This document shows, piece by piece, positions 1,525 to 64,000 of a stretch of DNA of 64,000 nucleotides (its first letter is position 1; each line of letters begins with the position of its first letter). Position numbers and translations under genes: made by a program. The stretch lies in assembly GCA_001804415.1 (NCBI GenBank), contig MHGA01000017.1, positions 18,390 to 82,389 of the forward strand. Direction: 5' to 3'. A model generated the notes under the pieces. It was given only the letters and a program-made list of their open reading frames with translations. It ran no database searches and was not told the origin of the DNA. Origin of the DNA: Candidatus Aquivivens invisus (GTDB lineage: Bacteria > Omnitrophota > Gorgyraeia > Aquiviventales > Aquiviventaceae).

Positions 1525-1549
1525 TCGGCTCCCCCCTGTAGTATACCCA

Positions 1550-1565
1550 ACCCTATATCTTGTTT
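1550..1565. promoter_or_regulatory. Candidate NrdR box 1 in the nrdJ 5' region
   Basis: ACCCTATATCTTGTTT matches the NrdR consensus acaCwAtATaTwGtgt at 13/16 positions and lies 26-41 bp upstream of the nrdJ start. Confidence 0.45.
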
Positions 1566-1581
1566 CCTGCCTGACGCCAAT

Positions 1582-1597
1582 CCACAAGCCATTGTGG
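1582..1597. promoter_or_regulatory. Candidate NrdR box 2 (tandem with box 1)
   Basis: CCACAAGCCATTGTGG has palindromic arms CACAA/TTGTG and matches the consensus at 11/16. Start-to-start spacing from box 1 is 32 bp, about three helical turns, as is typical of tandem NrdR boxes. Confidence 0.4.
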
Positions 1598-1709
1598 TTA
1601 GGGGCCAGGCCTCTGTCAAGTAAATTTTAAGCGAAAACACAAGATCTTGAGTCCCTCGACGGAAAATATGCCTAGGGGTTGGGGTAGAGACGCGGGTATC
1701 AGCGAGTGT

Positions 1710-2135
1710 TCAGAGGACGAACCGCTCGGAAGGTTCAAGCGTAGGCGGGAGAGCCGGCTTGTTCACCGTGATCTCCAACGGATCGCTCAGTAGAGATTGT
1801 CCTCGGCGCCTCGCCTCGAATGGGCCGAGGGTGAACTGGCCAGGCTCAAGCGCCGTCAGCGCATACACAAGGCTGATCGACCGCTTCACCTGGCCCGCCT
1901 CCATCGCCAGGTGCGTCGAGCGGCTCTGCGCGACGACGCGAAAAGCCTTGGGGAATTCCACGGGCTCCAGCTCGACCTGCTGGACATTGCCTTCCACGGT
2001 GATCGTCAACGCCAGCTGCTCTCCGACATCCACGGTCGTGCGATCAACCTGCACGGAGAGCTGCACGTCGGGAGGACCCGCCTGATCGGGGGCCGCCTCC
2101 GCGATCGCCGAACCGAGGAGCGTTGCGAGACTCAC
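1710..2135 (-). CDS. Secreted hypothetical protein (possibly a BatD-like N-terminal fragment)
   Basis: 141-aa ORF, co-directional and immediately downstream of htpX. It has a hydrophobic N-terminal segment but no diagnostic motif. Confidence 0.35.
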   Translation of the reverse strand: MSLATLLGSAIAEAAPDQAGPPDVQLSVQVDRTTVDVGEQLALTITVEGNVQQVELEPVEFPKAFRVVAQSRSTHLAMEAGQVKRSISLVYALTALEPGQFTLGPFEARRRGQSLLSDPLEITVNKPALPPTLEPSERFVL

Positions 2136-8110: not shown

Positions 8111-8197
8111 TGGGACAAGCGACAAGAGACAAGCGACACGTCATAAGTGACCCATGTATGGCCTTGATACTTGTCGCTTGTCGCTTGTAACTTGTCA
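8111..8197. repeat. Heptamer-repeat hairpin (GGGACAAGCGACAAGAGACAAGCGACA arm / TTGTCGCTTGTCGCTTGTAACTTGTCAC arm) between tldD and pmbA
   Basis: Direct reading. The right arm overlaps the annotated 5' end of the pmbA ORF (MSLVACNLSL). Confidence 0.65.
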
Positions 8198-9550: not shown

Positions 9551-10752
9551 CGAGCACACAGCAGACAGCACACAGCAGACAGCACAGCGCATTGCTGTGT
9601 GCTGTGTGCTTGGTGCTGTGTGCTGTCTCAGGGTGCGCGGTCCTCGGGACGATCAAGCAGCCGCTGGCGCAGGCGGTGGCGGCTGGAGGGGAACTCCTTG
9701 ACGATGGGTATGCCGACGTGGCGGGCGCCCTCCACATCCACACGACGTACTCCCATGACGCGCATGGGACGTTTGAGGACGTGGTGCGGGCGGCCAACGC
9801 GCAGCAGCTCGACTACGTCATCCTCACGGAGCACAACACCCTCCAGCCGCTTCGCGAGGGCAAGCAGGGCTGGCATGGGGCGGTTCTCGTGCTGATCGGG
9901 ACTGAGCTCTCGACTCGAGGCGGGCATTATCTGGCGTTGAACGTCACTGAGGAGATCGACCGTCATCAGCTCACCACCCAACAGATCATCGATGAGGTCG
10001 CTCGCCAGGGAGGGTTGGGATTCATCGCCCATCCGTATTTCAAGAAGGGGCGCTGGAAGGACTGGACGGTGAGGGGCTTCACCGGCATCGAGGCGTATAA
10101 CGTCGCGCACGACACGTTGGATGAGAACAAGCTCCGCCTGGCGCTGTGGACGCTCACCGCCCCGCCGGAGCCGTTTTACCTCTCGATCATCGACCGGCCG
10201 TACGATCCGCTGCGCGCTTGGGATGAGCTCGTCGCGCGGCACGGCAAGGTGGTGGGGATCGGTGCGACCGACGCGCATGAATTCCACCTGTGGGGCCTGA
10301 AGTTCGCCCCCTATGACATCATGTTCCAGATGGTCCGCACGCACCTCCTGGTGCCCTCGACGCCCCTCACCCCTGACCTGGTCTATGAGGCCCTGCGCCA
10401 GGGACACGCCTATTGGGAACTCGCCCTCGTGGCTGATGCGCAGCGCGGTGTCCGCTTTTTCGCCCACGACGGCCAGCGAGTCCTCGGGGTGATGGGAGAT
10501 GAGATCCGCCTCGAGCCGAACCTGCACCTGACCGCGATCCTCCCACAACCAGCACTCCTGACGCTGTTCAAAGACGGGCAGGCGATCGCGACGGCTTCCG
10601 AGAAAAGCTGGGACGTGGCGGTGAGCGATCCGGGCGCCTATCGCCTCGAGGCGTCGCTCAACGGCAAACCCTGGCTCTTCACCAACCCGATCTACGTCCG
10701 CCCCGCACCCAATGACGAGCCAACAGCACCAAGCACACAGCACACAGAATAA
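9547..10752 (+). CDS. PHP-domain metal-dependent phosphoesterase, predicted lipoprotein
   Basis: HIHTTYSHD PHP motif. The N-terminus MTSTQQTAHSRQHSALLCAVCLVLCAVSGC has a hydrophobic core and an AVSGC lipobox. The ATGA overlap with the pmbA stop is at 9547-9550. Confidence 0.6.
   Translation: MTSTQQTAHSRQHSALLCAVCLVLCAVSGCAVLGTIKQPLAQAVAAGGELLDDGYADVAGALHIHTTYSHDAHGTFEDVVRAANAQQLDYVILTEHNTLQPLREGKQGWHGAVLVLIGTELSTRGGHYLALNVTEEIDRHQLTTQQIIDEVARQGGLGFIAHPYFKKGRWKDWTVRGFTGIEAYNVAHDTLDENKLRLALWTLTAPPEPFYLSIIDRPYDPLRAWDELVARHGKVVGIGATDAHEFHLWGLKFAPYDIMFQMVRTHLLVPSTPLTPDLVYEALRQGHAYWELALVADAQRGVRFFAHDGQRVLGVMGDEIRLEPNLHLTAILPQPALLTLFKDGQAIATASEKSWDVAVSDPGAYRLEASLNGKPWLFTNPIYVRPAPNDEPTAPSTQHTE
9553..9637. 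repeat. Inverted repeat (CACAGCAGA)n / (TGCTGTGTG)n overlapping the 5' coding end of the PHP lipoprotein gene
   Basis: agcacacagcagacagcacacagcagacagcacagcgcattgctgtgtgctgtgtgcttggtgctgtgtgctgtc. Confidence 0.6.
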
Positions 10753-13225: not shown

Positions 13226-14438
13226 CCTCGAAGGTGTCGAGAGCGAACAGCTCCCGAAGATCGAGGCGGTGATAGGTGGTGTAGGCGGCGCGCGTTGGGC
13301 CCTGCGCGTTGGCCACCCAGAGCTCCGGCCAGGCGAAGATGACGCTCTGCACGTTCGAGCTGGGTGCTGCCGCTTTCGCGAGTTCCTTCGCCGCCTCGAC
13401 ATTGATCCGGCCGTAGCGCGATAGAATGCCCGCGGCTTGCCCCAGGTACCTCACCTCGTAGGCTGACCCTGCCGGCGACTCAAGGCCCGGTGCGCGCGGG
13501 TTGCCCCCTGAGGCGAGTTGCCGGTCCCGAATACCAGCATCCACCGCCGTATCCGCCCGGAAGACCGCGTCGGGCAGGGGGCGCGCGTACGCCACACCAT
13601 GCTCTGTGGCATCATCCGCCTCAAAGACCGCGACGTGCGAGCGGGTCGTCTCGACGACGACCGCCCGGTTGGCCTTCGCGTCTGCCACCACGTAGTTCAC
13701 CCCCACCGTCCGAGGCGCCTCGCGAATCAGGCGAACGGCTTCATCGAGGTCGTCCGCTTCTTCGAGGACGCGCCGCATGAGAAACGCCATCGGGATGCCG
13801 GCGTAGGTGGCGTCGACCGTCTCAGCGCCAATCTGCCCGATCGAAATCTGCCGGTCATTCATCCCGGTGAGCGCGCCGATAAATCCGGCCCAGCCGACGT
13901 TGACAAACGCGTGCTTGCCTGCAGGACGCACGACACACACGGTGGCGTAGCGTTGGATGCCGACCTCGATGGTCCAATCGAGGTTGCGCGTGTGGATCAG
14001 CCTGCCGCCTGAGGTCGCGCGCCCCCACACCGCCAACCCGGAGCACGCATAGGTGCGGTCGGGAACCGCGTGGAAGCGCCAGAGATCGCGCAGGCTCACC
14101 CCTGAGGCCGACGCCAGCGCGCGTAATTCTTCGAGATAGTCAGCCGGGACAAAGGGCTTGGCCTGAGCCCATGAACGGTCCAGCCACCAGTTCGCCGCCA
14201 CAGACCGGATGAGGGGCACTTTGAGGTACGCGCGGAAATAGCCCAGCAGCGTGGCGGTGGCGCGGCGCACGTCATCGGTAAGCAGCTCACCATGCTGGCG
14301 TCCAAGTTCCGTTGGCGCGCCCTCCAGGTAGACAATGGGCAGCCCGTCGTGATGTTCGACGCGCGCCGCTTCGGCGGTGACAGGTGACAGGTGACAGGTG
14401 ACAAGTGTGATGATCAGCAACGCGCTTGCACGCTTCAT
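13221..14438 (-). CDS. Peptidase C45 / acyl-CoA:6-APA acyltransferase-like Ntn-hydrolase, secreted
   Basis: TYACSGLAVWG (candidate Cys nucleophile) and RNLDW motifs. The N-terminal signal [25 protein letters not shown] has its hydrophobic core encoded by the (GTGACAG)n repeat. Confidence 0.5.
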   Translation of the reverse strand: MKRASALLIITLVTCHLSPVTAEAARVEHHDGLPIVYLEGAPTELGRQHGELLTDDVRRATATLLGYFRAYLKVPLIRSVAANWWLDRSWAQAKPFVPADYLEELRALASASGVSLRDLWRFHAVPDRTYACSGLAVWGRATSGGRLIHTRNLDWTIEVGIQRYATVCVVRPAGKHAFVNVGWAGFIGALTGMNDRQISIGQIGAETVDATYAGIPMAFLMRRVLEEADDLDEAVRLIREAPRTVGVNYVVADAKANRAVVVETTRSHVAVFEADDATEHGVAYARPLPDAVFRADTAVDAGIRDRQLASGGNPRAPGLESPAGSAYEVRYLGQAAGILSRYGRINVEAAKELAKAAAPSSNVQSVIFAWPELWVANAQGPTRAAYTTYHRLDLRELFALDTFED

Positions 14439-14484
14439 ACGTGGTCTCTTGAGCTTGTCACTTGTCACTTGTCGCTTGTCACGA
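14378..14484. repeat. Heptamer-repeat hairpin: (GTGACAG)x3-GTGACAA arm, ~43 nt spacer, CTTGTCAC-TTGTCAC-TTGTCGC-TTGTCAC arm
   Basis: Direct reading. The left arm lies inside the 5' coding end of the C45 gene. The right arm overlaps the stop of the ceramidase-like gene (..QIVTSDK*). Confidence 0.65.
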
Positions 14485-23688: not shown

Positions 23689-23925
23689 TGGAGCCCCACG
23701 GGCAAGCCCGTGGCCCCCTCCACGACGCCCCGTGTGGGGCGAACATCCCGCCCACCGGTCCGCTGAAGTACAGCCGACGGGGCCCCCGGCCAAGGCCGGG
23801 GCCCGATGGCGGGGTCGAAACGCCGCCAGGCCGCGGGTGACGCGGAGCCAAGGCTCCCGCCGTCCCCACTGCTTCGTTTTGCTTCGTTTTTGCGAAGCAA
23901 AACGAAGCAAAACGGTGGGGAAGGC
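23689..23925. repeat. Cluster of GC-rich palindromes (REP/BIME-like), including copy 2 of the CCCCAC..GCAAAACG..GTGGGG element at 23864-23920
   Basis: gtggagccccacgggcaagcccgtggccccctccac; gccccgtgtggggc; gggcccccggccaaggccggggccc; ccccactgcttcgttttgcttcgtttttgcgaagcaaaacgaagcaaaacggtgggg. Confidence 0.5.
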
Positions 23926-42478: not shown

Positions 42479-42549
42479 CTGGGGAGCCAGGGCTCGAACC
42501 TGGACGTAGAGCTTCAAAGGCTCTTGTGCTACCGTTACACTACTCCCCA
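42479..42549 (-). tRNA. tRNA-Gln (anticodon UUG)
   Basis: The minus-strand sequence TGGGGAG..CTCCCCA has a 7-bp acceptor stem. The anticodon stem AGAGC/GCTCT has loop CTTTGAA. The T-arm is CCAGG-TTCGAGC-CCTGG. No encoded CCA. Confidence 0.75.
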
Positions 42550-43468: not shown

Positions 43469-43534
43469 GTCAACGGGTTGGCGCGTTAGCCGGTTTGCGG
43501 GTTTGCGCGTTCAACGCGCCAACGCGCGAACGCG
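43469..43534. repeat. Hairpin built from NNAACGCG octamer repeats between ispE and the transketolase genes
   Basis: ttggcgcgttagc...cgcgttcaacgcgccaacgcgcgaacgcgctaacgtttggcg. Confidence 0.5.
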
Positions 43535-44473
43535 CTAACGTTTGGCGTGCAAGACGTCCTTGACCGCGGAAGCGATGTCGTCGGGCATCAAGTGGAAGGC
43601 GCGGAGCAGCTCGGCAGGATCGCCGGAGGTCCCGAAGCGATCGAGGACGCCGACGAAGCGCATCGGCACCGGGTGGTGCCTGACCACGACCTCCGCGACG
43701 GCGCCTCCGAGCCCGCCCAGAACGGTATGCTCTTCCACCGTCACGATCGCACCGGTCTCGCGGGCGGCGGCGATGAGGGCGTCTTCATCGATCGGCTTGA
43801 TCGTGTGGAGGTTGATGACGCGGGATTCGATGCGCTCTCGCGCGAGCCGTGCGGCGGCTTCGAGGGCGTGGGCGACCATCGTCCCGCAGGCGATGATCGC
43901 GACATCCGCGCCGTGTCGCAGGACGTTCGCTTTGCCGATCGTGAAGGCGTCGTCGGGCTTCGTCACCGTCGGCACCGGCGCTCGGCCGAGCCGAAGGAAG
44001 ACCGGGCCGGGGTAGGAGGCCGAGGCGATGGTCGCCTGCTTGGCCTCCATCGCATCGCAGGGGACGATCACGGTCATGTGCGGCAGCACGCGCATGTGGG
44101 ACAGCTCTTCCAGCGCTTCCGCCGTCGCCCCATCCGCGCCGACCGACAGACCCCCGTGCGACCCCGCGGTCTTGACGTTGAGCCGCTGATAGCAGACGGC
44201 CAGACGAAATTGCTCCAGGGCTTTCCCCGTGACGAACTGGCTGAAGGAACACGCAAACGCAATCTTGCCGGCCCAGGCCAGGCCCGCCGCCGTGCCGATC
44301 ATGTCCTGCTCCGCGATGCCGACGGAGAAAAAGCGATCCGGGAATTCTTTCTTGAACCACACGGCTCGCGCGGAATCCTCCAGGTCGCCGGAGAGGGCGA
44401 CGACGTTGGGATTGCTGCGCCCCAGCTCCAACAGCCCCTCGCCGAATCCGTCCCGCGTCGGTTTGTCGCTCAT
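43535..44473 (-). CDS. Transketolase, C-terminal (pyrimidine-binding) subunit
   Basis: GIAEQDMIGTAAGLAWAGK and the C-terminal domain of split two-subunit transketolases. Confidence 0.75.
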   Translation of the reverse strand: MSDKPTRDGFGEGLLELGRSNPNVVALSGDLEDSARAVWFKKEFPDRFFSVGIAEQDMIGTAAGLAWAGKIAFACSFSQFVTGKALEQFRLAVCYQRLNVKTAGSHGGLSVGADGATAEALEELSHMRVLPHMTVIVPCDAMEAKQATIASASYPGPVFLRLGRAPVPTVTKPDDAFTIGKANVLRHGADVAIIACGTMVAHALEAAARLARERIESRVINLHTIKPIDEDALIAAARETGAIVTVEEHTVLGGLGGAVAEVVVRHHPVPMRFVGVLDRFGTSGDPAELLRAFHLMPDDIASAVKDVLHAKR

Positions 44474-47116: not shown

Positions 47117-48079
47117 TTAGTAGATGACTTTGTTGAGCGGGTACTCGATGATGTCGCGCGCGCCGGCGGCTTTCAATTTCGGCACCAGCTCCTTCACCGA
47201 GCACTCGTCAATGACGACTTCAATCGCCCACCAGTCTTCGCCCGCGCCTTCTTTCCAGAGTTGCGAGACAGTCGGCCGTTTCATCGCCGGCAGGACGCTG
47301 ATCACCGTCTTCAGGTCGGCTTTGGAGACGTTGAGTTTCACCCCCACCTTGCCCTCGGCTTCGACCGCGCCGAGCAACAGCGTCTTCAGGCTCTCGATTT
47401 TCCGCCGCTTCCACGGATCCGCCAGCGCCTTCCGATTGGCGATGAACTGGGTGGTGGACTGGCAGATCGTCTCGATGATGCGCAGGCCGTTGGCGATCAG
47501 GGTCTGGCCCGTCTCGGTCAATTCCACCACGGCATCGACGAGGCCGGCGCGGACCTTGCCTTCCGTCGCCCCCCAGGAAAACTCGACCTTGGCGCGCACG
47601 CCGTGGGTGGCGAGATACGACTTGGTGACGTGGACCAGCTCCGTGGCAATGCGCTTGCCGTTGAGATCCGAGAGCGCGCGAATCGGCGAGGCCGCCGCCA
47701 CCGCCAGCACCCACCGGACGGGATGCGCGGTCCGCTTGGCATACCGGAGCTCCGCCACCCGCTGCACCTGCGAGCCGTTTTCCAGAATCCAGTCGTGGCC
47801 CGTGATCCCGCAATCGAGGAGGCCCCCCTCGACGTACCGCGACATCTCCTGGGCCCTCAGCAGCATGGGTTCGAGTTCCGGGTCATCGATGGACGGCATG
47901 TAGGAGCGCTCGCTGATGACGACCGAAAAGCCGGCTCGCCCGAAGAGCTTAGCGGTGGCCTCCTGGAGGCTGCCTTTGGGCAGGCCGATCTTCAGCTTCG
48001 TCGGGGAGCTCAAGGACGTGGAGCGTTTTGCGAACGCGGGTTTTGTCGCGCGTTCTCGAGTAGCGCTTTTTGCTTTCAT
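47117..48079 (-). CDS. hisG: ATP phosphoribosyltransferase, long form with C-terminal regulatory domain
   Basis: LKIGLPKGSLQEATAKLFGRAGF.. and GLVDAVVELTETGQTL. The true start is probably near LKIGLP; the ORF-track ATG adds about 27 aa. Confidence 0.75.
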   Translation of the reverse strand: MKAKSATRERATKPAFAKRSTSLSSPTKLKIGLPKGSLQEATAKLFGRAGFSVVISERSYMPSIDDPELEPMLLRAQEMSRYVEGGLLDCGITGHDWILENGSQVQRVAELRYAKRTAHPVRWVLAVAAASPIRALSDLNGKRIATELVHVTKSYLATHGVRAKVEFSWGATEGKVRAGLVDAVVELTETGQTLIANGLRIIETICQSTTQFIANRKALADPWKRRKIESLKTLLLGAVEAEGKVGVKLNVSKADLKTVISVLPAMKRPTVSQLWKEGAGEDWWAIEVVIDECSVKELVPKLKAAGARDIIEYPLNKVIY

Positions 48080-48159
48080 GGATGCGTGTTCTTGGATTGA
48101 TGGCCCAATGCTTGCGCGGCCGTTTCATCGACGTGATGAGGCGCCACGATTGTACCGTA

Positions 48160-48207
48160 GGTGCTGGGGGGGTGTCAACGAACTGTGCTCGTGGGTAGTG
48201 CATCAGT
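48160..48207. repeat. Palindrome-containing element, copy 1, with core TGCTCGTGGGTA, at the left edge of the lower-GC island
   Basis: gtcaacgaactgTGCTCGTGGGTAgtgcatcagtttgac has arms gtcaa..aactg / cagtttgac. Confidence 0.45.
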
Positions 48208-49051
48208 TTGACCTGAAGATTTTTTGAGCTACGAGGTCAAGCACATCCTCAAGCTCCCATAACTTATTCGTTACCCCTGCCGCCATCGCTGGCGTAACTC
48301 GTAGGCTCTTGTGAATCCTCACGAAGTTATAGTACATGAAGTGGAGGGCTACTGCCGCCTCTAGGTTCTGCACCTTCTTGGAGAAGGCGTTGGTCAGGCG
48401 GGTAAAACGCCTCATGCTCATCCGCATGGTCAGGTTTTGCCGCTCCGCGAAGCTCGTGGAGACGTGCCAGGGGTCCGGGTTTCCCTGAATCCTGGTTCCC
48501 TGGACCGCCAGGCATACCGCCGGGCTGTACCGGGTTTGCTCAGGCTTGGGATCGTTGCCGTAGATTTTAACGAGCATCGAATAGTCCACCTCAGAGCCAA
48601 ACGCCCCCTCTACCGCCTCGATATAGACCCGGAAGCCATCTGTCGTGATCTGCGGACGGTACTTGAGGCGGCTGGCGAGATCGCCCATGAACGCTTGGGC
48701 GGCGGTCAGGTTGCGCGGAGCCACAAGCCACGAGGGGACGAGCTTGGTATCCGCGCAGATCGCCGTCCAGGTCCACACGTCCCCATAGCCCCACTTGCCC
48801 AGCTTGTCCTTCGGGACATTCTTCTCTTTGGCGTAGCAGAAGGACCAGATTTCATCACATTGAAGGCGCTTACAGGAGAGGTTGCGGAGCGTTTCGTCCT
48901 GGTAGGCGGCACACGCTGTACCCGCGTCTAGAAGCAACTTGACGACCGTATTGAATGACACGTCACCCATCCGGGCGGTGGCGCGCATGGAGTTGCCTTC
49001 GACGAGGGCTTGGAGAATGGTGGTTTGTCGTTCCATATCTAGCCTGTTCAT
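48203..49051 (-). CDS. IS1-family transposase (HTH + DDE)
   Basis: CDEIWSFCYAKEKN..WTWTAICADTKLV..ITTDGFRVY..SFAERQNLTMRMSMRRFTRLTNAFSKK..HFMYYNFVRIHKSL follows the IS1 InsB motif order DE..W.W.A.D / TDG..Y / IER.N...R..RL.R.T..FSK / YNF.R.H. Confidence 0.7.
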   Translation of the reverse strand: MNRLDMERQTTILQALVEGNSMRATARMGDVSFNTVVKLLLDAGTACAAYQDETLRNLSCKRLQCDEIWSFCYAKEKNVPKDKLGKWGYGDVWTWTAICADTKLVPSWLVAPRNLTAAQAFMGDLASRLKYRPQITTDGFRVYIEAVEGAFGSEVDYSMLVKIYGNDPKPEQTRYSPAVCLAVQGTRIQGNPDPWHVSTSFAERQNLTMRMSMRRFTRLTNAFSKKVQNLEAAVALHFMYYNFVRIHKSLRVTPAMAAGVTNKLWELEDVLDLVAQKIFRSN

Positions 49052-49107
49052 ACACCTAGTATACTTGAGCGCTCAAGCATAAGTCAACAAAAAAGATTCA
49101 CCCCACA
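48203..49107. mobile_element. IS1-family insertion sequence (ends approximate)
   Basis: Single-ORF IS1 transposase plus imperfect terminal inverted repeats: TGAAGATTTTTTGAGCT at ~48209-48225 and its partner, the reverse complement of 49087-49104 (TGAATCTTTTTTGTTGACT). Local GC is ~56%. Confidence 0.55.
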
Positions 49108-49177
49108 TTATTCTCTCAACTTGCTTGCTGACTCACGGTCTCTTAACGCCTTACTCTTATCCTTACAGGTGGCGTCG

Positions 49178-50221
49178 TCACGAAGCCCCTTCGTGGCTTT
49201 TCCCGTTCGGCTTGCTCGATCCAGCCGCTTCAGGCTTTCCTGCAGCATCCGGCTGAATACCGCCGCCGTCAGCTTGTTCTCTGACATTGCTGTCCTCCTT
49301 TTCCAGTTCCGCATCCTCTTTGACAGTAGCCCCCAGGTCAACCACCAGGGGTTCCGCTGACGCTCTGACGATTCGTCCCTGAATTTCATCCACCAATGCC
49401 TGTTCAGCTGGGTCAAGGGCAGAGACCGACTTGAATAGTTCGGCGGCTTCCGCTGCATCAATCACGAAACCGTGTGAGGGATAATCATTAATCAACCGCT
49501 CAAGTGCTCCGGTCTTTAAATTCCCTTTCTCCAAACGGTCGCCGTACGCTTTAGCAATCGTCATCTGACGCTCAATCTCCCCAACGCGATAAGGATCAAT
49601 CTGGGCAGCCACAGGAGTGAAGATGCCGCTCACCAACTGGCTGGAAATATCTGACGCCGTCTTGGTCGAGATCGCCCGACCGCTCTTAGTCACCAATTCC
49701 AGCATATAGGTTTCAAAGCTCTTGAAGGCGTGGGTCGTAACTGTCGTCAATGCCTGCAGCGTGTCCAGCCCAGATTCCATGTTGAAAATCTCATCGGGCT
49801 TGTTGATCTGAATGTCGAGCGGACCCAATTCGCCGTAGTCGCCAAACGCGAGGTGGTTGGAGCCGACGGCAAGCAACGTACCAGCGCTCTTGCACGGTCC
49901 CGCCACTAACAAGCGGATTTTTTCATACGAGCGCTGCAGCCAACGGGCAAGACGATATGCCCCATGCGCGTCTCCACCATGCGTTGTCAGGAAGAGAGAC
50001 ACGTTGGTCCGCTTCGCCTTGCCTTTGGCAGCGATTTTGCGACACAACTGGTCAACTCCGCTGTCCTCAATGGGACCACTGTAGACGTACAGGTCGGACT
50101 GAAACTCTTCAAGCAGCGCGTTGACTTGCTTGGAACAGCGGTATTTTGGCGATCTCTTCTTGGCGGGAGTTGTCATCGAGAATGCTACCTCAGCGGGTTT
50201 TGGCTTTCTTCCACCTGGCAT
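49178..50221 (-). CDS. ClpP-fold serine peptidase of the SDH/S49-like family
   Basis: LFLTTHGGDAHGAYRLARWL and VAGPCKSAGTLLAVGSNHLAFGDYGELGPLD follow the Ser-nucleophile-elbow pattern of S49/SDH ClpP-fold peptidases. The low-complexity C-terminus is uncertain. Confidence 0.5.
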   Translation of the reverse strand: MPGGRKPKPAEVAFSMTTPAKKRSPKYRCSKQVNALLEEFQSDLYVYSGPIEDSGVDQLCRKIAAKGKAKRTNVSLFLTTHGGDAHGAYRLARWLQRSYEKIRLLVAGPCKSAGTLLAVGSNHLAFGDYGELGPLDIQINKPDEIFNMESGLDTLQALTTVTTHAFKSFETYMLELVTKSGRAISTKTASDISSQLVSGIFTPVAAQIDPYRVGEIERQMTIAKAYGDRLEKGNLKTGALERLINDYPSHGFVIDAAEAAELFKSVSALDPAEQALVDEIQGRIVRASAEPLVVDLGATVKEDAELEKEDSNVREQADGGGIQPDAAGKPEAAGSSKPNGKSHEGAS

Positions 50222-54564: not shown

Positions 54565-55053
54565 TTATTGTCGTCTCCTGTCTCCTGTCTCATGTCTCTT
54601 GAGTCTTCGCTCGATGGCCGCGAGCTGCTTCACGCGACGCTCGTGGCGTCCGCCGGCTTCAAACGGGGTCGCGAACCACGCCCGCACGATCCGCTTCGCG
54701 TGCGCCAGCGGTAGGCGTTCGGCCCCCAAGACGAGGACGTTCGCGTCGTTGTGCGCGCGGCTGCGCTGCGCGTCGAACACCGTCTGGCATGCGCCCGCGC
54801 GGATGCCGGGAACCTTGTTCGCGACCATCGCAATCCCGATCCCAGACTTGCATAACAGCACCCCCCGATCGAATCGACCGCCGGCAACCGCCTGCGCGAC
54901 CTTGAAGCCGATGGCGGGATAGTCGCAGGGTTCAGGGGAATGCGTCCCCAGATCCGCCACTTCGCAGCCGAGGGCGCTCAACACGGGGATCAACGTGGCT
55001 TTCAACGCAAACCCGCCATGGTCGGCTCCGATCGCCACCCGCAGCGGCCTCAT
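54565..55053 (-). CDS. rpiB: Ribose-5-phosphate isomerase B
   Basis: [30 protein letters not shown]. Confidence 0.75.
54566..54607. repeat. GTCTCNT heptamer tandem repeat overlapping the rpiB 3' end and stop
   Basis: gtctcct gtctcct gtctcat gtctctt gagtctt. On the minus strand it encodes ..HETGDRRRQ*. Confidence 0.55.
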
Positions 55054-55565: not shown

Positions 55566-55569
55566 AACA

Positions 55570-55660
55570 GTGACAGGTGACAGGTGACAGGTGACAGGTC
55601 AAGACCTTTCATTAGGAACCGTTGTTTGTCGCTTGTCACTTGTCACTTGTCGCTTGTCAC
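55570..55660. repeat. Heptamer-repeat hairpin: (GTGACAG)x4 arm, 25-nt spacer, TTGTCGC-TTGTCAC-TTGTCAC-TTGTCGC-TTGTCAC arm
   Basis: Direct reading. The right arm supplies the C-terminal ..DVTSDK* and the stop of tsaC. Confidence 0.65.
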
Positions 55661-58083: not shown

Positions 58084-58119
58084 TCTCCTCGTTCTTGTCA
58101 CTTGTCGCTTGTCACTTGT
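58084..58119. repeat. Single-arm heptamer repeat (CTTGTCAC TTGTCGC TTGTCAC TTGTTGC TTGTTAC) overlapping the purM stop
   Basis: It encodes the purM C-terminal ..QQVTSDK*. Confidence 0.6.
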
Positions 58120-59110
58120 TGCTTGTTACGCTCGATTGTGCCAACGGGCCATGCGGCAACCCCAAGACGCCGAAGGGTCGCAAGGACCGAGGTGGACGCC
58201 CGGGGCCGACACGACAAGGCCATGCCCACACCCATGTTGAACGTCCGGAACATCTCGTCCGTCGAGATCCTGCCCGCCCGCTGGATCGCGCCGAAGAGCG
58301 GCGGCACCGTCCATCGACCGGGCTGCCAGGTCACACGCAGCTCGGGGCGCTTCGCGACCAGCGATGGCAGCCGGCGCGCCAACCCGCCGCCGGTCACGTG
58401 CGCGATCGCCGTCACCGGAATCCGTTTGAGCAATGCGAGAACCGGTTTGACATAGATGCGCGTCGGCGTCAGCAACTCACGCCTCCATCGTTTCAGCTCC
58501 GAGAGGCCGAAGACCTTCCGCACGAGCGAGAACCCGTTCGCATGGATGCCGGACGACGCCAGGCCGATGACAATATCGCCTGCCCGCACCGCCGAGCCAT
58601 CGATCAGTTTCCGACGCTCCACGACGCCCACACAGAATCCCGCCACATCATAGTCCCCGTTGCGATAGACCCCCGGCATCTCCGCGGTCTCGCCGCCGAC
58701 CAACGCGCAGCCGCTTTGCTGACAACCCTTGACGATGCCGGCGATCAGCTCTCGCATCCGTCGCGGATTCAGCTTCCCCACCGCGAGATAATCGAGAAAA
58801 AACAACGGCCGCGCGCCGTAGACCACCAGGTCGTTCACGTTCATCGCCACGAGGTCGATTCCGATGCCTGCGTGGTCGCCCAACAACTCCGCCACCTTCA
58901 GTTTGGTGCCGACCCCGTCCGTGGAGGACACCAGCACCGGATCGCGCAATCCGCTCGGCAACCGCACCAGCGACGCAAACTGCCCTCTGTCCGGCAGCAC
59001 CTCCGGTCCGTGCGTCGACCGGATCAGCGGCGCCAACCGCGCCAGCGTCCGATCCGCCGCCTCGATATCCACCCCCGCCTGCCGATAGGTCGTTGCGGTC
59101 ACGATGTCCT
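58098..59110 (-). CDS. purM: Phosphoribosylformylglycinamidine cyclo-ligase (AIR synthetase)
   Basis: YRQAGVDIEAADR.. is the PurM N-domain and GGETAEMPGVY the C-domain. The start is probably a GTG near 59110. Confidence 0.8.
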
Positions 59111-59789: not shown

Positions 59790-61208
59790 TTAGCAGCGGC
59801 CTTGGCCGGAGAATTTCTCCAGCGCGAACTTGTCGCCCTCCCCACCGAAGGGGATCGGGTACGTCCCGCTCCAGCAGGCGGTGCAGTAGTTGCCGGGCGG
59901 CTTGCTGACGGCCTTCAGCATCCCCTCCAGCGAGAGGTAGCCCAGCGTCGTCGCCCCGATGAACTTGCAGATCTCCTCGACGGACAGCCGGTTGGCGATG
60001 AGCTCCTTGCGCGTCGGGAAATCGATGCCGTAGAAGCACGAGTGCTTCGTCGGCGGGCAGCTGATGCGCATGTGGATCTCCTTCGCGCCAGCCTCCCGCA
60101 GGCTTTTGACGCGGGCCCGCGTCGTCGTCCCGCGGATGATCGAGTCGTCGATCAGCACGAGCCGCTTGCCCTTGACGATCGAGCGGATCGGATTGAACTT
60201 CACGCGCACCTTCAGGTCGCGGATCTCCTGCGCCGGCTGGATGAACGTGCGGCCGACGTAGTGGTTCCGGGTCATCCCCATCATGAACGGAACTTTCGAC
60301 TCGAGACTGAAGCCCAACGCGGCGAAATTCCCGGAGTCCGGGATCGGCATGACCAGATCCGCCTGCGCGGGATGCTCGCGCGCCAATTGCCGCCCGAGGT
60401 TCATGCGAACCGCCTGCACGTTTTCGCCAAAGATGTTCGAGTCCGGCCGCGCGAAGTAGACATGCTCAAAGAGACAGTGTGAGGGCTTAATCTCCTCGTT
60501 CTTGAAGGGATGCAGCGAGCGCAGACCGCCGGCGGTGATGACGACGATTTCGCCAGGCTCCACGTTGCGCACAAATTTGGCGCCGATGAGATCCAGCGCG
60601 CAGGTTTCCGAGGCCAGCACGTACGTCTTGTTGAGCCGCCCGATGCACAGCGGGCGGAATCCCTGCGGGTCGCGGCAGCCGATCAGCGCGCGCTCCGTGA
60701 GGAACAGCAGCGAAAACGCCCCTTTCAGCAGCCGCACGCATTCGACCAGATCGTCCTCGATCTCCTTGTTCGTCGACCGAGCCAGCAGGTGCAGGATGAT
60801 CTCGCTGTCGACGGTGGTTTGGAAAATCGAGCCGTTCGCCTCGAGCTGTTGGCGCAGCTCGTACGCGTTCACCAGGTTGCCGTTGTGCGCCACCGCCAAG
60901 GCACCCTTGGCGCAGCTGACCACCAGCGGCTGCGAATTCTTGAGGGTACTGGAGCCGGTGGTGGAGTAGCGCGTGTGGCCGATCGCCATGCGGCCGGGCA
61001 GCGCGCGCAGCGACTCTTCGCTGAACACCTCCGACACCAGGCCCATGCCTTTGTGGGTGCGCATCTCGCGGCCGTCGAACGTGACGATGCCCGCCGCCTC
61101 CTCGCCACGGTGCTGCAACGAATATAATCCCAGATACGTCAACCGCGCCGCGTCCCGGTGCCCGTAGATGCCGAAGAGCCCGCACGAATGCTTGACGGCC
61201 TCATCCAT
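59790..61208 (-). CDS. purF: Amidophosphoribosyltransferase
   Basis: CGLFGIYGH is the Ntn Cys1, and there is a PRTase domain with a C-terminal Cys cluster. Confidence 0.9.
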   Translation of the reverse strand: MDEAVKHSCGLFGIYGHRDAARLTYLGLYSLQHRGEEAAGIVTFDGREMRTHKGMGLVSEVFSEESLRALPGRMAIGHTRYSTTGSSTLKNSQPLVVSCAKGALAVAHNGNLVNAYELRQQLEANGSIFQTTVDSEIILHLLARSTNKEIEDDLVECVRLLKGAFSLLFLTERALIGCRDPQGFRPLCIGRLNKTYVLASETCALDLIGAKFVRNVEPGEIVVITAGGLRSLHPFKNEEIKPSHCLFEHVYFARPDSNIFGENVQAVRMNLGRQLAREHPAQADLVMPIPDSGNFAALGFSLESKVPFMMGMTRNHYVGRTFIQPAQEIRDLKVRVKFNPIRSIVKGKRLVLIDDSIIRGTTTRARVKSLREAGAKEIHMRISCPPTKHSCFYGIDFPTRKELIANRLSVEEICKFIGATTLGYLSLEGMLKAVSKPPGNYCTACWSGTYPIPFGGEGDKFALEKFSGQGRC

Positions 61209-61710
61209 GCGACGTGCCCCTCCGGATCACCCATCGCTCAAATCCCGTGCCGAGGAGAAAGTAGTACAGCGCGTTCGCCGCGACATTCGTCACCAGGAGG
61301 ACCGTCTGGGAGGCGATCGCGGCTCCGCCGATCAGCACCAGCAAGGTGAGCGGAGAGACCACCACAAACATCGACATCATCCACCGCGACATGAAGGACT
61401 GCATCATCGCCGCTGACTCGCTCCATAGCCCGCGGTGCTCCGCCATCACCACCATGACGGAAAGCGGAATGGCCAACGGAAGATAAATCATCACCAGCCA
61501 CGCGCCGGCGGAAAGCGGCATCCGCGACTTGACCGCCTTCCAGAGGCTCCACATGCTCAGGCACACCAGGATTCCAATGGTGTTCAAGATGCCAAACATG
61601 ACGGTGGGTTGAACCCACTCCTTCCCCATGCTGACCCAGCGAAGCGTGATGAACCCTGTCAGGGGAATGACGCTCCACAGTCCAAGCACAAAGAGGAGCA
61701 ATCGCCGCAT
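61201..61710 (-). CDS. Integral membrane protein of unknown function (4-5 TM)
   Basis: [21 protein letters not shown].. with several hydrophobic helices. Confidence 0.45.
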   Translation of the reverse strand: MRRLLLFVLGLWSVIPLTGFITLRWVSMGKEWVQPTVMFGILNTIGILVCLSMWSLWKAVKSRMPLSAGAWLVMIYLPLAIPLSVMVVMAEHRGLWSESAAMMQSFMSRWMMSMFVVVSPLTLLVLIGGAAIASQTVLLVTNVAANALYYFLLGTGFERWVIRRGTSHG

Positions 61711-63956
61711 TACGCGTGCGCTCCACCTGCGAGGCCTGCTCGCCACACGCGGCTCAACTGCTCCACCGTGAGGTCGATCCGCGGCCGGATCACCAGGCGG
61801 GTGCCCCCAACACGACCAAGCGTTGTCAGAGGAACACGGACGCGTTTCGCCAACGCCTCGATACGCTCCTGGTGATATCGCTCGCACGTCACGACAATCC
61901 GCCCGGCCGACTCGCCGAACAGGAGCGCATCTGGACGAAGTGACAGGTGACAGGTGACAGGTGACAGGTCAAGCGCTGCACCAATGAGATGCTCCGGCTC
62001 CGTGATGCAGCATTCGGCCAGCGCCACGGCCAGGCCGCCTTCGGAGCAATCGTGCGCGGATTTGATCAGTCCTCGATGCGCGAGCTCCAGCATGAGGTGA
62101 CCAAGCCGCCGCTCGCTCGGCAGATCGCACGCCGGCGGCCTGCCCTGTTTGCGGTGGTGGATGAGCTTGAGGTATTCGCTGCCGCCAAGCTCTTCCCTCG
62201 TCTCGCCGAAGAGCAGGATCGCGTCACCCTCCTGCTTGAAGCTCGCCGTGATCGGCTGCATTCCGCATTCCGCATTCCGCATTCCGCATTCGATCAACCC
62301 CACCATCCCGATCACCGGCGTCGGGTCGATGGCGCCGCGCGGGCTCTCGTTGTAGAAGCTCACGTTCCCGCCGGTGACGGGCGTGCCGAACGCCCGGCAC
62401 GCCTCGGCGATCCCGCGCACGCATTCCTTAAACTGCCACATCACCTCAGGGTCTTCCGGATTGCCGAAGTTCAGGCAGTCGGTGACCGCAAGCGGCTTCG
62501 CCCCGACGCACACCAGATTGCGCGCGGCCTCCGCCACCGCCAGCTTGCCCCCCTCATACGGATCGAGATAGCAGTAGGTGGCGTTCGCATCGGTCGTCGC
62601 CGCCAACAGCGCGCCGGTTCCCTTCACCCGCAAGACCGCGGCGTCCGCCCGGCCCGGCAACACGACGGTGTTGGTCTGGACCATGTGGTCGTATTGTTCA
62701 AAGACCAGGGCTTTGCTGGCGATGGTCGGTGCGCCCAGCAGTGCCAGCAGCGCCTCGCCATAGTCCCTTGGCTGAGAGACGGCCCGTAACGAGAGCCGCT
62801 GCGCTTTCGAGAGATACGCGGGACGCCTGGTGGGGCGTCGATAGACCGGAGCCTCGTGCGTCAGCGCGCCCACCGGAATCTCCGCGACGACCTGGTCGCC
62901 GTCCTTGACCCGCATGAGGTTTCCGTCCTTCACGCGTCCGATCTGAACCGCATGCAAGCCCCACTTGGCGAAGCGCCGCGCAACCTGCGCTTCCCGTCCG
63001 CGCTTGACAATGAGCAGCATGCGCTCCTGCGATTCGGAAAGCATCACCTCAAAGGGCGTCATCCCCTCTTCCCGGCGGGGGACCTTGGCCACGTCGATCT
63101 CGATGCCGCAGCGGCCTCGTGAAGCCGTCTCGCAGGTCGAGCACGTCAGGCCCGCCGCGCCCATGTCTTGAATGGCGATGACGTCACCGGTCGCCAGGAC
63201 CTCCAGGGTCGCTTCGAGCACGCACTTTTCCGCAAACGGATCCCCGATCTGCACCGCCGGCCGATCAGCCTCAGAGCCGTCGGTGATTTCCCGCGAGGCG
63301 AAGCTCGCGCCCCCCAATCCGTCCCGCCCGGTGGAGGAGCCGACATACACGACCGGGTTGCCCGCGCCGCGGGCTTTCGCCACGGCGATTGAGCCCCTCG
63401 GCACGATCCCGATGCACATGACGTTGACCAGCGGATTCTCGCGGTACGTCTCATCGAAGGCGATTTCCCCGCCGATGGTCGGCACCCCGACTGCGTTGCC
63501 GTAGTCGGCGATCCCTTTGACGACCCCGCCAAACAGAAACCTCGTGCGGCCCGATCCGTTCAACGGGCCGAACCGCAGGCTGTCAAACAGCGCAATCGGC
63601 CTGGCCCCCATCGTGAAGATGTCGCGCAGAATCCCTCCGACACCGGTCGCCGCTCCGGCGTGCGGCTCGACGGCGGACGGATGGTTATGCGACTCGATTT
63701 TGAACGCCACGCCTAACCCATCTCCGATGTCAATGACCCCTGCGTTCTCCTCGCCCGCACGAATGAGAACGCCCTTCCCTCTCGTCGGAAATGTCTTGAG
63801 GTAGATCTTGGAACTCTTGTACGCACAATGTTCGGACCATTGGACGCTGAAGATGCCGAGTTCCGTCGTCGTCGGAGCGCGTCCCAGGATCTTCACAATG
63901 CTCCGGTATTCGTCCTGCGTGAGGTTGAGTTTCTTCAGCAACGCCGCGTCAGGCAT
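61710..63956 (-). CDS. purL: Phosphoribosylformylglycinamidine synthase subunit PurL (FGAM synthase II)
   Basis: [26 protein letters not shown].., tandem AIR-synthase-like domains and the DxGxGG motif GDPF.. Confidence 0.85.
61940..61967. repeat. (GTGACAG)x4 tract inside the purL coding sequence, in frame
   Basis: It encodes ..[11 protein letters not shown].. within PurL. Confidence 0.65.
62258..62291. repeat. (GCATTCC)x5 tract inside the purL coding sequence, in frame
   Basis: It encodes ..[13 protein letters not shown].. within PurL. Confidence 0.65.
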
Positions 63957-64000
63957 GCGCGTGCGCCTCAATGAGCGACTCGAAGAGCAACCGCCCGTCA
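63954..64000 (-). CDS. 3' end of the upstream pur gene (partial; likely purQ or purS)
   Basis: The frame ends ..[11 protein letters not shown] with its TGA overlapping the purL ATG (ATGCCTGA). Confidence 0.3.

Follow-up and report, generated by a model that had tools for sequence, protein, structure and literature searches.

Non-triplet microsatellites in essential genes are usually regarded as switches or as mistakes. Within the 64,000-nt stretch of DNA analysed here (the window), which originates from the metagenome-assembled genome (MAG) of a high-GC Candidatus Omnitrophota member from groundwater, two arrays of 7-nt units lie inside purL, a gene for an enzyme of purine biosynthesis. The locus raises the question of how such arrays arose within a core gene, how they are kept there, and whether they act as a switch.

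The purL gene and its two heptamer tracts

The minus-strand ORF at 61710–63971 carries purL and contains both tracts (Table 1). Full-length equivalog matches above the curated cut-offs (NF002290, 993.6 bits against a cut-off of 648; TIGR01736, 918.8 bits against 525.75), covering residues 17–747, place the product as FGAM synthase subunit II of the small type. Its Pfam architecture of PF18072 with two stretches each of PF00586 and PF02769, i.e., duplicated AIRS and AIRS_C domains with an FGAR-AT linker, and its association with purS and purQ, which lie directly upstream, also correspond to this type. The order of the purine cluster is purC, purS, purQ (upstream, beyond the window end), purL, a 169-aa ORF, purF, purM, purD and purE. 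The deposited protein (P0001, 100% identity), whose numbering is used below, starts with an ATG at 63956; at 748 aa it is one residue shorter than was stated in the first-pass annotation of this DNA. The PurL of Thermus (3VIU) matches it with an E-value of 8e-196.

The same annotation had described two perfect in-frame heptamer tracts within the gene, and this was borne out by Tandem Repeats Finder (TRF), by translation and by the extent of the ORF. Tract 1 was detected with a period of 7, 4.3 copies of the unit GTGACAG and 100% matches, and tract 2 at 62258–62291 with a period of 7, 4.9 copies of GCATTCC and 100% matches, with an imperfect fifth unit (GCATTCG) terminating at 62292. Tract 1 encodes L664–S672 and the first base of L673 (LSPVTCHLS), while tract 2 encodes the twelve residues E556–Q567; the translated peptides, written out as 13 and 14 letters, agree with those given earlier. 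Site 1, the position of tract 1, is a loop within the last PurL domain, modelled by AlphaFold as a loop with a short helix (pLDDT about 80–88). Site 2 is a linker which starts right after the second AIRS N-domain (437–555 according to Pfam) and is modelled as a coil, its pLDDT falling below 50 at residues 559–563, as for a disordered linker. Relative to Thermus PurL, the protein has 8 and 7 additional residues at the two tract places, in line with the earlier suggestion that these are surface loops tolerant of insertion. RNA folding indicated no structure for tract 1 (z=+0.37) and no significant structure for tract 2 (z=−0.68).

Table 1. Position and structure of purL, its two tracts and representative heptamer elements of the window
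Feature	Coordinates	Strand	Description
purL (FGAM synthase subunit II)	61710..63956	-	748 aa + stop; NCBIfam equivalogs above cut-off
Tract 1 (site 1)	61940..61969	-	Coding strand (CTGTCAC)x4.3; single arm, without inverted partner
Tract 2 (site 2)	62258..62292	-	Coding strand (GGAATGC)x4 + imperfect CGAATGC; single arm
Intergenic two-arm sibling element, Sua5–LMWPc spacer	55570..55660	-	RNA fold z=-3.2
Second two-arm element, unit GGTGACA	14376..14482	.	Left arm 14376-14407; right arm (CTTGTCA) 14454-14482
Representative intergenic heptamer hairpin between convergent genes	9553..9626	.	RNA fold z=-5.2
Representative hairpin of the dominant GACAAGN / CTTGTCN unit family	8114..8196	.	Between two co-oriented genes

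Heptamer arrays across the window

Within the window, five perfect arrays of at least three copies were found at period 7 compared with none or one at each of the other periods from 4 to 12, and 100 dinucleotide-preserving shuffles gave no match to either 21-nt tract pattern. A chance origin was therefore excluded. Approximately 25 imperfect period-7 arrays were also present, mostly as intergenic inverted pairs. Copy numbers of the window arrays ranged from 3.4 to 5.0, and all arrays other than the two in purL were intergenic or overlapped a gene terminus. The excess at period 7, the preference for about four units and the mainly intergenic location between co-oriented ORFs are as in the heptameric SSRs and STRRs of other bacteria. 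The only Rfam match in the window at gathering thresholds was a single tRNA.

The tract 1 unit had been assigned to the family of intergenic hairpins seen throughout the window, and identical (GTGACAG)n arrays do indeed occur at 14377–14404 and 55570–55597. Read on the gene strand, the sibling element in the Sua5–LMWPc spacer consists of (GTGACAA/GCGACAA)x5, a 26-nt spacer and (CTGTCAC)x4.3; a run of 35 nt there (55569–55603) is identical to tract 1 with its flanks (61939–61973). The hairpin between convergent genes has the layout (AGCACAC/AGCAGAC)x4.9, CGCAT, (TGCTGTG)x4.9.

G-quadruplex formation was considered as an explanation for the window heptamers. None of the units GTGACAG, GGAATGC and GACAAGC has three or more G in a row, so they lack G-tracts, and this explanation was rejected.

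Copy-number stability among strains

Sixteen contigs were found to encode an identical 748-aa PurL, and in ten independent contigs drawn from these (NCBI, ENA and JGI assemblies) a check at the DNA level showed identical tracts. The diverged strain L082 has the same copy numbers at both tracts, even though a single base is substituted within tract 2. Among 5.8 billion proteins searched, only three PurL variants above 80% identity were found, with no unit-number variant among them. The sampled strains of the species all share one copy number at each tract, as judged on assembly consensus sequences, which say nothing on minor read-level variants.

The sole frameshifted variant (P0013, contig L081) has a 31-nt deletion between GGGATG and GGAATG and not a change in unit number. 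Its scaffold is interrupted by runs of N, carries foreign low-GC DNA in purS and looks chimeric, and it was therefore not relied on; as a candidate OFF allele it was set aside.

It should be noted that slippage is real in this population, as an intergenic period-8 array between purS and purQ differs by exactly one unit between strains. The intergenic array carrying the tract 1 unit was also compared across strains, but these are 99.96–100% identical and thus too alike to gauge relative stability. The locus had also been proposed to be sensitive to assembly, and for this there is some support, namely a scaffold gap in L098 that falls within a sibling array.

The same purL sites in related Omnitrophota

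Period-7 arrays of approximately four to five units occur in strong excess in this genome and its Omnitrophota relatives, an excess that the outgroup phyla do not show, with up to 13 arrays per approximately 8 kb in Omnitrophota loci versus 0–2 (occasionally 3–4) in other phyla. Related Omnitrophota carry heptamer arrays at both purL positions of the window, with units that differ between genomes (L002, L004, L005, L007, L009, L010, L012, and L026). Over many genomes, arrays lie in purL at site 2, at site 1, near residue 9 and at the C-terminus. Across 17 loci, 37 internal period-7/8 arrays were called by TRF within 39.9 kb of purL, overlapping calls being left unmerged, while purS, purQ, purF, purC, and purD together (approximately 35 kb from the 17 loci) contained no internal arrays of these periods.

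Outgroups have short native loops at both sites, without arrays; the two segments are additions specific to the lineage, the rest of PurL being conserved. In the 114 homologues compared, the length of site 2 runs from 7 to 51 aa (modes at 10, 17, and 28–29) and that of site 1 from 14 to 56 aa, and the reading frame is open in every one. About half of the clade members have a short native loop at site 2. The idea that tract 1 is a repeat insertion fixed in-frame calls for revision in so far as it implies a single recent event in this genome, the same sites being occupied across a deep clade, apparently by inheritance. A search of low-GC outgroups for a native seed of tract 1 gave suggestive similarities (GTCAC...CTTGAC in L020 and L036), on which no conclusion is based.

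On sequence comparison, each purL site has its own family of related units across lineages, with the units within one array usually identical. At site 1, the family consists of CCTGTCA, CTTGTCA (L004) and CGTGTCA (L002 and L026), each uniform inside its own array. At site 2, the unit GGAATGC is common to the window, L099 and L101, while the N-terminal site has the unit NNTTCGG and the C-terminal site GCTCAGG. The five-unit layout of tract 2 recurs in L099, where site 2 equals that of its sister L003 with exactly 21 nt added (three units, 7 aa). Site 2 of the window is likewise 21 nt (three units) longer than that of L003, in keeping with the earlier statement that changes of three units preserve the frame. 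The GGAATGC arrays of the window and L099 have only 2 differences over 28 positions, although the proteins are only 71% identical.

Hairpins are found at the purL sites of relatives, often with both arms translated. The two-arm version within the ORF of L004 folds strongly (z=−5.4), and in L004 and L005 the second arm is not a perfect reverse complement: it differs at the base where exact complementarity would create a TGA. In L007 the left arm no longer pairs with the right arm. L010 has an identical hairpin, loop included, at both purL sites (48-nt core), and in L004 and L101 the purL unit is reused in nearby intergenic hairpins. The closest sequenced relative, L001 (80% aa identity), has at site 1 a period-8 array with an unrelated unit and the same total length, apparently built from the flanking A-I-E codons; this array looks like a replacement or de novo origin and not like gradual divergence.

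A metagenome scan for (GGAATGC)4 found the unit to be widespread, in arrays of 4–15 units and at GC contents of 36–71%, with none of the 80 loci fetched lying in purL. Scan arrays apparently within long ORFs were mostly outside recognized domains, and in-frame arrays in other conserved genes were not established. Similar heptamer arrays occur in many other environmental bacteria. Literature searches returned no description of such repeats in Omnitrophota.

Origin and maintenance of the arrays

The two tracts are probably members of a heptamer microsatellite system characteristic of the clade, located in two permissive loops of PurL and long inherited vertically. Arrays of this system would change by replication slippage, and inside the ORF the survivors would be changes that leave the overall length divisible by three, typically by gain or loss of three units (21 nt, 7 aa). 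The three-unit steps are suggested by comparisons between species, no slippage event within purL having been observed directly. Cycles of contraction and re-expansion could give an internally uniform array with a drifting unit, that is, concerted evolution. An inverted second arm may sometimes be gained, probably by template switching, and arrays may now and then be copied between loci, for which the double hairpin of L010 and the 35-nt identity of tract 1 with the sibling element would speak. As the L010 hairpins at the two sites are identical, not every array would be purely vertical in descent. Over three copies, a 7-nt unit is expected to pass through every reading frame, so that only units free of stops in every coding-strand frame could persist. 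The encoded peptides have no conserved sequence and would therefore be tolerated loop filler and not functional motifs, on the assumption of neutrality. In this genome the tracts would not act as a switch.

Several observations run counter to the inheritance view, the period-8 array of L001 at site 1 among them. The narrow copy range in the clade (approximately 3.4–5 units) is not obvious under free slippage, and repeated independent gains would also explain why array states are scattered patchily over the PurL tree.

Several other explanations were weighed against this one. Repeated insertion of a small hairpin element, whether mobile or copy-pasted (RPE-, REPIN- or MITE-like), into a few permissive or targeted purL positions, or conversion of these, with the single arms of the two tracts as remnants, is considered unlikely. 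It would account for the shared core and loop of the two L010 hairpins, for the 7 nt beyond the array that tract 1 shares with the intergenic arm, for the reuse of purL units in nearby intergenic hairpins of L004 and L101, for sharing of units within genomes far above expectation for approximately 2,300 possible circular heptamers, for the narrow arm length (approximately 30 nt) and for the patchiness on the tree; there is also the precedent of in-frame palindromic elements in metabolic genes of Rickettsia (PMC10969869). However, the units vary by locus and, at one site, by genome, unlike a master-copy element, the site-specific unit families persist across lineages, and sister lineages differ by exact three-unit steps between identical flanks. 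No terminal inverted repeats, target-site duplications or transposase were noticed in the array flanks inspected, the arrays abut conserved codons (ATC-GAA at site 2; GCG-ATC-GAG in L001) as for local amplification, and neighboring genes are without insertions. A further reading, which is regarded as rather improbable, is that the heptamer hairpins of this clade are a distinct and actively maintained class of element, with a dedicated mechanism that writes or homogenizes them at an arm length of approximately 30 nt, with stable heritable landing sites even inside an essential gene, and with the purL sites kept for a role such as translation pacing at the domain boundary. A role at the level of the nucleic acid, whether as an mRNA structure or protein-binding site that pauses translation at the AIRS/AIRS_C boundary or in processing or stabilizing the polycistronic pur transcript, is very doubtful. 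The exact position of site 2 at the boundary, the strong folding of two-arm versions such as that of L004, the near-perfect conservation of the GGAATGC array between the window and L099 over deep divergence and the occupancy of purL alone among the genes examined are all consistent with such a role. Against these, the window tracts are single arms without significant structure, the units are too diverse for a single binding protein, arms decay independently (as in L007), and the element is evidently dispensable since approximately half of the clade has the short loop at site 2.

The first-pass annotation had put forward a candidate contingency or hypermutable locus, in which slippage by one or two units turns purL off and on, and the arrays are indeed non-triplet repeats within an ORF, so that such a change would be a frameshift. 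The frameshifted allele of L081 and the one-unit variation of an intergenic array in the same population could be counted for it. This proposal did not hold up and is given very little credence: tract length was not polymorphic in the ten contigs and L082 at consensus level or in the protein database, the only candidate OFF allele is doubtful, each tract has only 4–5 units and is located in the final third of a housekeeping gene of purine synthesis, not in a surface, restriction-modification or virulence gene where switching is plausibly adaptive, and the frame is open in all homologues. Repeat mis-assembly, as a source of the tracts or of their copy numbers, is effectively refuted. The gap in L098 and the aberrant tract 2 of L081 would point to it, but the same sequence is present in contigs with three naming styles (k141_/k127_, NODE_, and scaffold_), which suggests that more than one assembly pipeline was used, and these contigs come from separate samples and archives. 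The ORF is intact, tracts of 30–35 nt are below read length, and orthologous arrays occur in many unrelated MAGs.

On the reading of an inherited heptamer microsatellite system, a 7-nt repeat would have long resided in a core enzyme throughout a deep clade of bacteria, moving in three-unit steps with all frames translated, and would form a natural record of how slippage and concerted evolution interact with selection that keeps the frame open. What is new is that related Omnitrophota have heptamer arrays at both tract positions of purL. The homologues show PurL loops tolerating 7–40 extra residues and indicate to annotators what to expect in Omnitrophota MAGs. No G-quadruplex explanation would be needed for the preference of bacterial heptamer repeats for four units.

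Comparison with known repeat systems

Heptameric STRRs have reportedly been found in the cyanobacterium Calothrix by Mazel et al. in 1990. The arrays described here are like those of Xanthomonas, Nostoc and Calothrix in their 7-nt unit, in the genome-wide excess at period 7 with approximately four units preferred, in their location in short spacers between co-oriented ORFs with occasional inverted pairs able to form stem-loops, and in the variation of length and sequence between related genomes at one spacer. For Xanthomonas (unit GGGAATC) and Nostoc (unit GGGGA(T/C)T), the four-unit preference, the position between co-oriented ORFs and the sometimes inverted arrangement have been described, and a polymerase-slippage hypothesis for heptamers has been relayed (Rehm et al., 2015; PMC4692102). 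Those repeats are G-rich, with the four-unit preference ascribed to G-quadruplexes, whereas the window units have no G-tracts. In addition, many different units occur in one Omnitrophota genome, and repeats of the Xanthomonas and Nostoc kind are reported to be under-represented in coding regions whereas those described here are translated at fixed sites in a conserved enzyme.

REPs have a conserved consensus and are mobilized by RAYT transposases. REP, BIME and REPIN elements resemble the window hairpins as abundant short hairpin-forming repeats in intergenic operon spacers, but the latter have locus-specific tandem-heptamer arms. The Rickettsia palindromic elements (RPEs) are in-frame repeats in protein-coding genes (PMC10969869). 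Like them, the purL tracts are repeated DNA inserted in-frame in a conserved gene at fold-compatible positions, adding a peptide, and both have intergenic members. RPEs are often palindromic, while the two window tracts are single arms without hairpin structure (z=−0.7 and +0.4). RPEs also measure approximately 100–150 bp and have a conserved family consensus and peptide, in contrast to the 30-nt arrays or approximately 70-nt two-arm hairpins seen here, where units and peptides vary by locus and genome. Sharing of sequence is only partial (the 35 nt common to tract 1 and 55569–55603, and the duplicated L010 hairpin), and insertions are confined to purL among the genes checked.

With phase-variable non-triplet SSR loci, for example in Haemophilus and Neisseria (PMC8262952; PMC12721329), the likeness lies in a non-triplet unit within an ORF, where a one-unit change would shift the frame. 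The purL tracts differ in showing no tract-length polymorphism and no credible OFF allele in the assemblies examined, and in being short, placed within the final third of a biosynthetic housekeeping gene and in-frame across a deep clade. The intragenic repeats of Borg extrachromosomal elements reportedly have unit lengths divisible by three. Borgs have perfect, fast-evolving repeats within ORFs which add low-complexity and probably disordered segments (PMC9879509), much as in PurL. The purL arrays differ in their host, a bacterial chromosome, and in their 7-nt unit, which therefore gives a peptide period of 7 aa with all three frames of the unit translated.

Two heptamer arrays in purL

The minus-strand ORF holding both tracts was identified as PurL by NCBIfam equivalog models, and a deposited 748-aa protein (P0001) is 100% identical to its product. 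On the coding strand tract 1 reads as (CTGTCAC)n and encodes LSPVTCHLS, and tract 2 reads as (GGAATGC)n and encodes a 12-residue peptide. TRF, translation and the equivalog match therefore bear out the first-pass annotation, which had described two in-frame heptamer tracts within this gene. With three or more copies required, the window contains five perfect arrays of period 7, against none or one for each other period from 4 to 12, and neither tract pattern was matched in shuffled sequence; a chance origin is thus ruled out. Between purL and purF lies a 169-aa ORF with a tblastn match in only one of 17 related loci, and a 228-aa ORF overlapping it looks hydrophobic.

Coordinates of arrays and neighbouring features in the window
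Feature	Position	Strand	Description
Tract 1	61940-61969	minus (purL)	period 7, 4.3 copies, 100% matches, unit GTGACAG
Tract 2	62258-62291	minus (purL)	period 7, 4.9 copies, 100% matches, unit GCATTCC
PurL ORF	61710-63971	minus	start of P0001: ATG at 63956
169-aa ORF	61201-61710	minus	overlaps purL and purF by a few bases each; no Pfam hit
GTGACAG array	14377-14404		unit identical to tract 1
GTGACAG array	55570-55597		unit identical to tract 1
Intergenic arm	55569-55603		35 nt identical to tract 1, 7 nt of them outside the array
Array at purM end	58094-58126		(CTTGTCN)x4.7; spans last codons and stop
Array at rpiB end	54573-54598		(GTCTCCT)x3.7, (AGGAGAC)n on gene strand; spans last codons
Period-10 hairpin pair	23870-23914		TGCTTCGTTT x2 / CGAAGCAAAA x2
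Period-8 hairpin pair	43474-43540		CGGGTTTG x4.8 / CAACGCGC x3.6
tRNA	42479-42549	minus	sole Rfam match in the window, 64.2 bits
GC dip	48001-50000		GC 0.555
GC dip	1-2000		GC 0.585

Beyond these, TRF detected in the window some 25 arrays of period 7 with 3.4-5.0 copies, a small number of period 8 and a single one of period 10. Nearly all come as pairs in which one array is separated by a short spacer from another whose unit is approximately its reverse complement, and these pairs occupy short intergenic spacers or overlap gene termini. As RNA, such two-arm elements are far more strongly folded than their shuffled counterparts (z = -3.2 and -5.2). The dominant unit family is GACAAGN/CTTGTCN, from which GTGACAG differs by one base, and the identical GTGACAG arrays elsewhere in the window agree with the earlier suggestion that tract 1 shares its unit with the intergenic hairpins. 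Of the window's arrays, only the two in purL lie well within a gene; each lacks an inverted partner and shows no significant RNA structure (z = +0.4 for tract 1 and -0.7 for tract 2).

The period-10 and period-8 hairpin pairs show that the array system is not strictly heptameric. At the end of rpiB, the array presents repeated Shine-Dalgarno-like AGGAG motifs directly upstream of glyA. The window has a GC content of about 64%, and the two segments of lower GC may be foreign or atypical.

Arrays at the same sites across Omnitrophota

Compared with the Thermus PurL (3VIU, E = 8e-196), the window protein carries 8 and 7 additional residues, exactly at the tracts. Site 2 is flanked by the conserved ...VIGMxGLIE and PxTAxFK, and its segment measures 36-39 nt in outgroups and in L001, L003, L006, L008 and L011, 60 nt in the window and 72-99 nt in other loci. 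Site 1, between GAxx and a 10-residue motif, measures 45-48 nt in outgroups, 60-63 nt in most of the clade and 96-99 nt in some members. That both tracts add lineage-specific sequence to PurL is in keeping with this alignment. The longer forms are two-arm hairpins with both arms translated; that of L004 consists of (GCTCAAG)4, GCAGGAAGC and (GCCTTCA)4 (RNA fold z = -5.4). Among 114 homologues the length ranged from 7 to 51 aa at site 2, with modes at 10, 17 and 28-29, and from 14 to 56 aa at site 1; further recurrent insert sites lie near residue 9 and at the C-terminus, and in a few sequences an insert follows residue 132.

A TRF comparison of 80 purL loci from GTDB species representatives showed enrichment of period-7 arrays in Omnitrophota, with up to 13 per locus of about 8 kb, other phyla having 0-2 and occasionally 3-4. 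Eight of these loci (L002, L004, L005, L007, L009, L010, L012 and L026) have purL arrays at the window's two positions. Across 17 Omnitrophota loci, purL contained 37 internal period-7/8 array calls in 39.9 kb (TRF calls, overlapping ones unmerged), and purS, purQ, purF, purC and purD of the same loci contained none in about 35 kb.

Some Omnitrophota PurL proteins also carry an intein (PF14890 Intein_splicing and PF14528 LAGLIDADG_3) in their N-terminal half, together with heptamer arrays at sites 1 and 2 (P0004, P0057, P0072 and P0082, of 1258-1281 aa, and loci L010 and L026). In L101, from the genome of P0040, purQ and purL are separated by a T2SSE ATPase gene and a LAGLIDADG_2 ORF (L101:305-2322), and the called purL of 719 aa is without the N-terminal FGAR-AT linker domain.

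Probable inheritance and possible insertion of the arrays

Several facts point to purL arrays that would be long-lived, vertically inherited and kept internally uniform. Unit families are specific to sites: at site 1 the unit is CCTGTCA in the window, CTTGTCA in L004 and CGTGTCA in L002 and L026, each uniform over about four units, and the resulting VTCH peptide was found in at least six proteins. NNTTCGG arrays occupy the N-terminal site in L002, L004 and L006, and GCTCAGG-type arrays the C-terminal site in L002, L004 and L007. At site 2, GGAATGC-type arrays are shared by the window, L099 (P0035) and L101 (P0040), the last with an added second arm, in proteins of only 71-74% identity. Furthermore, L099 (ATCGAATGT GGAATGT GGAATGC GGAATGC GGAATGG GACCG) equals its sister L003 (ATCGAATCC GGAATGG GACCG) plus exactly three units, and the window is 21 nt longer than L003. 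Three 7-nt units make 21 nt, or 7 aa, which fits the step from 10 to 17 aa in the site 2 length distribution.

More than slippage acts on these arrays, as three observations show. In L010 one hairpin, loop included, is present at both sites; in L001, the closest relative (80% identity), site 1 holds a period-8 array that appears to be built from flanking A-I-E codons; and array states are patchy on the PurL tree. The repeated L010 hairpin and the patchy distribution would favour recurrent copy-insertion at the purL sites, but the site-specific unit families and the exact three-unit difference between L003 and L099 point to inheritance instead. Inheritance with concerted evolution is thus ranked as the most probable reading and copy-insertion second.

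Constraints within the protein

Over three heptamer units all three frames of an array are translated, and any unit that has a stop codon in one of its rotations should be lost from a reading frame. The unit GTGACAG includes TGA, and within purL only the stop-free orientation CTGTCAC is present. Direct reading of individual sequences also showed that in L004 and L005 the second arm is not an exact reverse complement of the first, differing at just the one base where perfect complementarity would produce TGA (CTTGAGC to CTTCAGC and TTGACCC to TTCACCC).

An overall confident AlphaFold model from a 58-sequence alignment (mean pLDDT 88.8, pTM 0.92) placed tract 2 (E556-Q567) in a coil flanked by strands 546-555 and 579-583, where residues 559-563 have pLDDT below 50. 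As the second AIRS N-domain (Pfam 437-555) ends right before it, tract 2 belongs to the linker joining the domains of the C-terminal AIRS/AIRS_C repeat. Tract 1 (L664-L673) forms a loop with a short helix (pLDDT about 80-88). The model supports the alternative, raised in the first-pass annotation, of surface loops tolerating insertion. The inserted peptides have no sequence conserved across the clade (114 homologues), which makes a specific function of the peptides as such less likely.

Variation between strains

The exact 748-aa PurL is encoded on 16 contigs from NCBI, ENA and JGI assemblies, and both tracts were identical in all ten of these that were examined. Copy numbers are also unchanged in L082 (99.7% identical over 2.7 kb), a strain with synonymous differences beside the tract and a single substituted base within tract 2. 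A search of 5.8 billion proteins gave just three, P0001, P0002 and P0013, with more than 80% identity to the window PurL. In P0013 translation continues in the +1 frame beyond a 31-nt deletion, which lies between GGGATG and a GGAATG unit; the protein was rejected as a unit-number variant, the deletion not being a unit change. It may be an artefact, since scaffold L081, on which it is encoded, has runs of N as well as foreign low-GC sequence within purS (L081:868-1057). Arrays are places where public assemblies break or turn chimeric, as in L081 and in L098, where an N run lies inside a (GTGACAA)n arm (L098:657-823).

As far as assembly consensus sequences can show, the purL tracts are therefore stable, and their earlier reading as a contingency or hypermutable site was not borne out. 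Slippage and turnover are real at the purS-purQ spacer of the same population (L081-L092; L083:2240-2300, just beyond the window end), where strains differ by exactly one 8-nt unit (4 vs 5 units) in a two-arm array of period 8, (GCGTTAGC-like)n with its inverse behind it, and L090 has an unrelated hairpin in its place.

Relation to known repeats

At least 120 metagenome stretches, from genomes of 36-71% GC, contain (GGAATGC)4, with arrays of 4 to 15 units whose numbers fall with length. None of the 80 loci fetched (L102-L181) was purL, and arrays in long ORFs were mostly outside recognised domains. The contigs come from very different environments, and some of the arrays adjoin inverse arrays (e.g., L117 and L162). 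The range of heptamer-array hairpins may thus extend far beyond Omnitrophota.

The most fitting description of the tracts is as two members, each with a single arm, of a heptamer-array system found across the clade and long resident at fixed PurL loop sites. Their interest lies mainly in the persistence of the sites, the three-unit steps and an array occupancy exclusive to purL among neighbouring genes. A literature search found no description of such repeats in Omnitrophota. The purL arrays are a variant of element kinds already known, heptameric SSRs and in-frame repeat elements. In-frame palindromic elements are known in metabolic genes of Rickettsia (PMC10969869). Heptamer SSRs of Xanthomonas and Nostoc prefer four units, attributed to G-quadruplex formation, lie between co-oriented ORFs, sometimes in inverted pairs, and are depleted from coding regions; a hypothesis relayed in the same study is that polymerase slippage favours heptamers (Rehm et al., 2015; PMC4692102). 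The arrays described here share this anatomy but, unlike those SSRs, are not G-rich.
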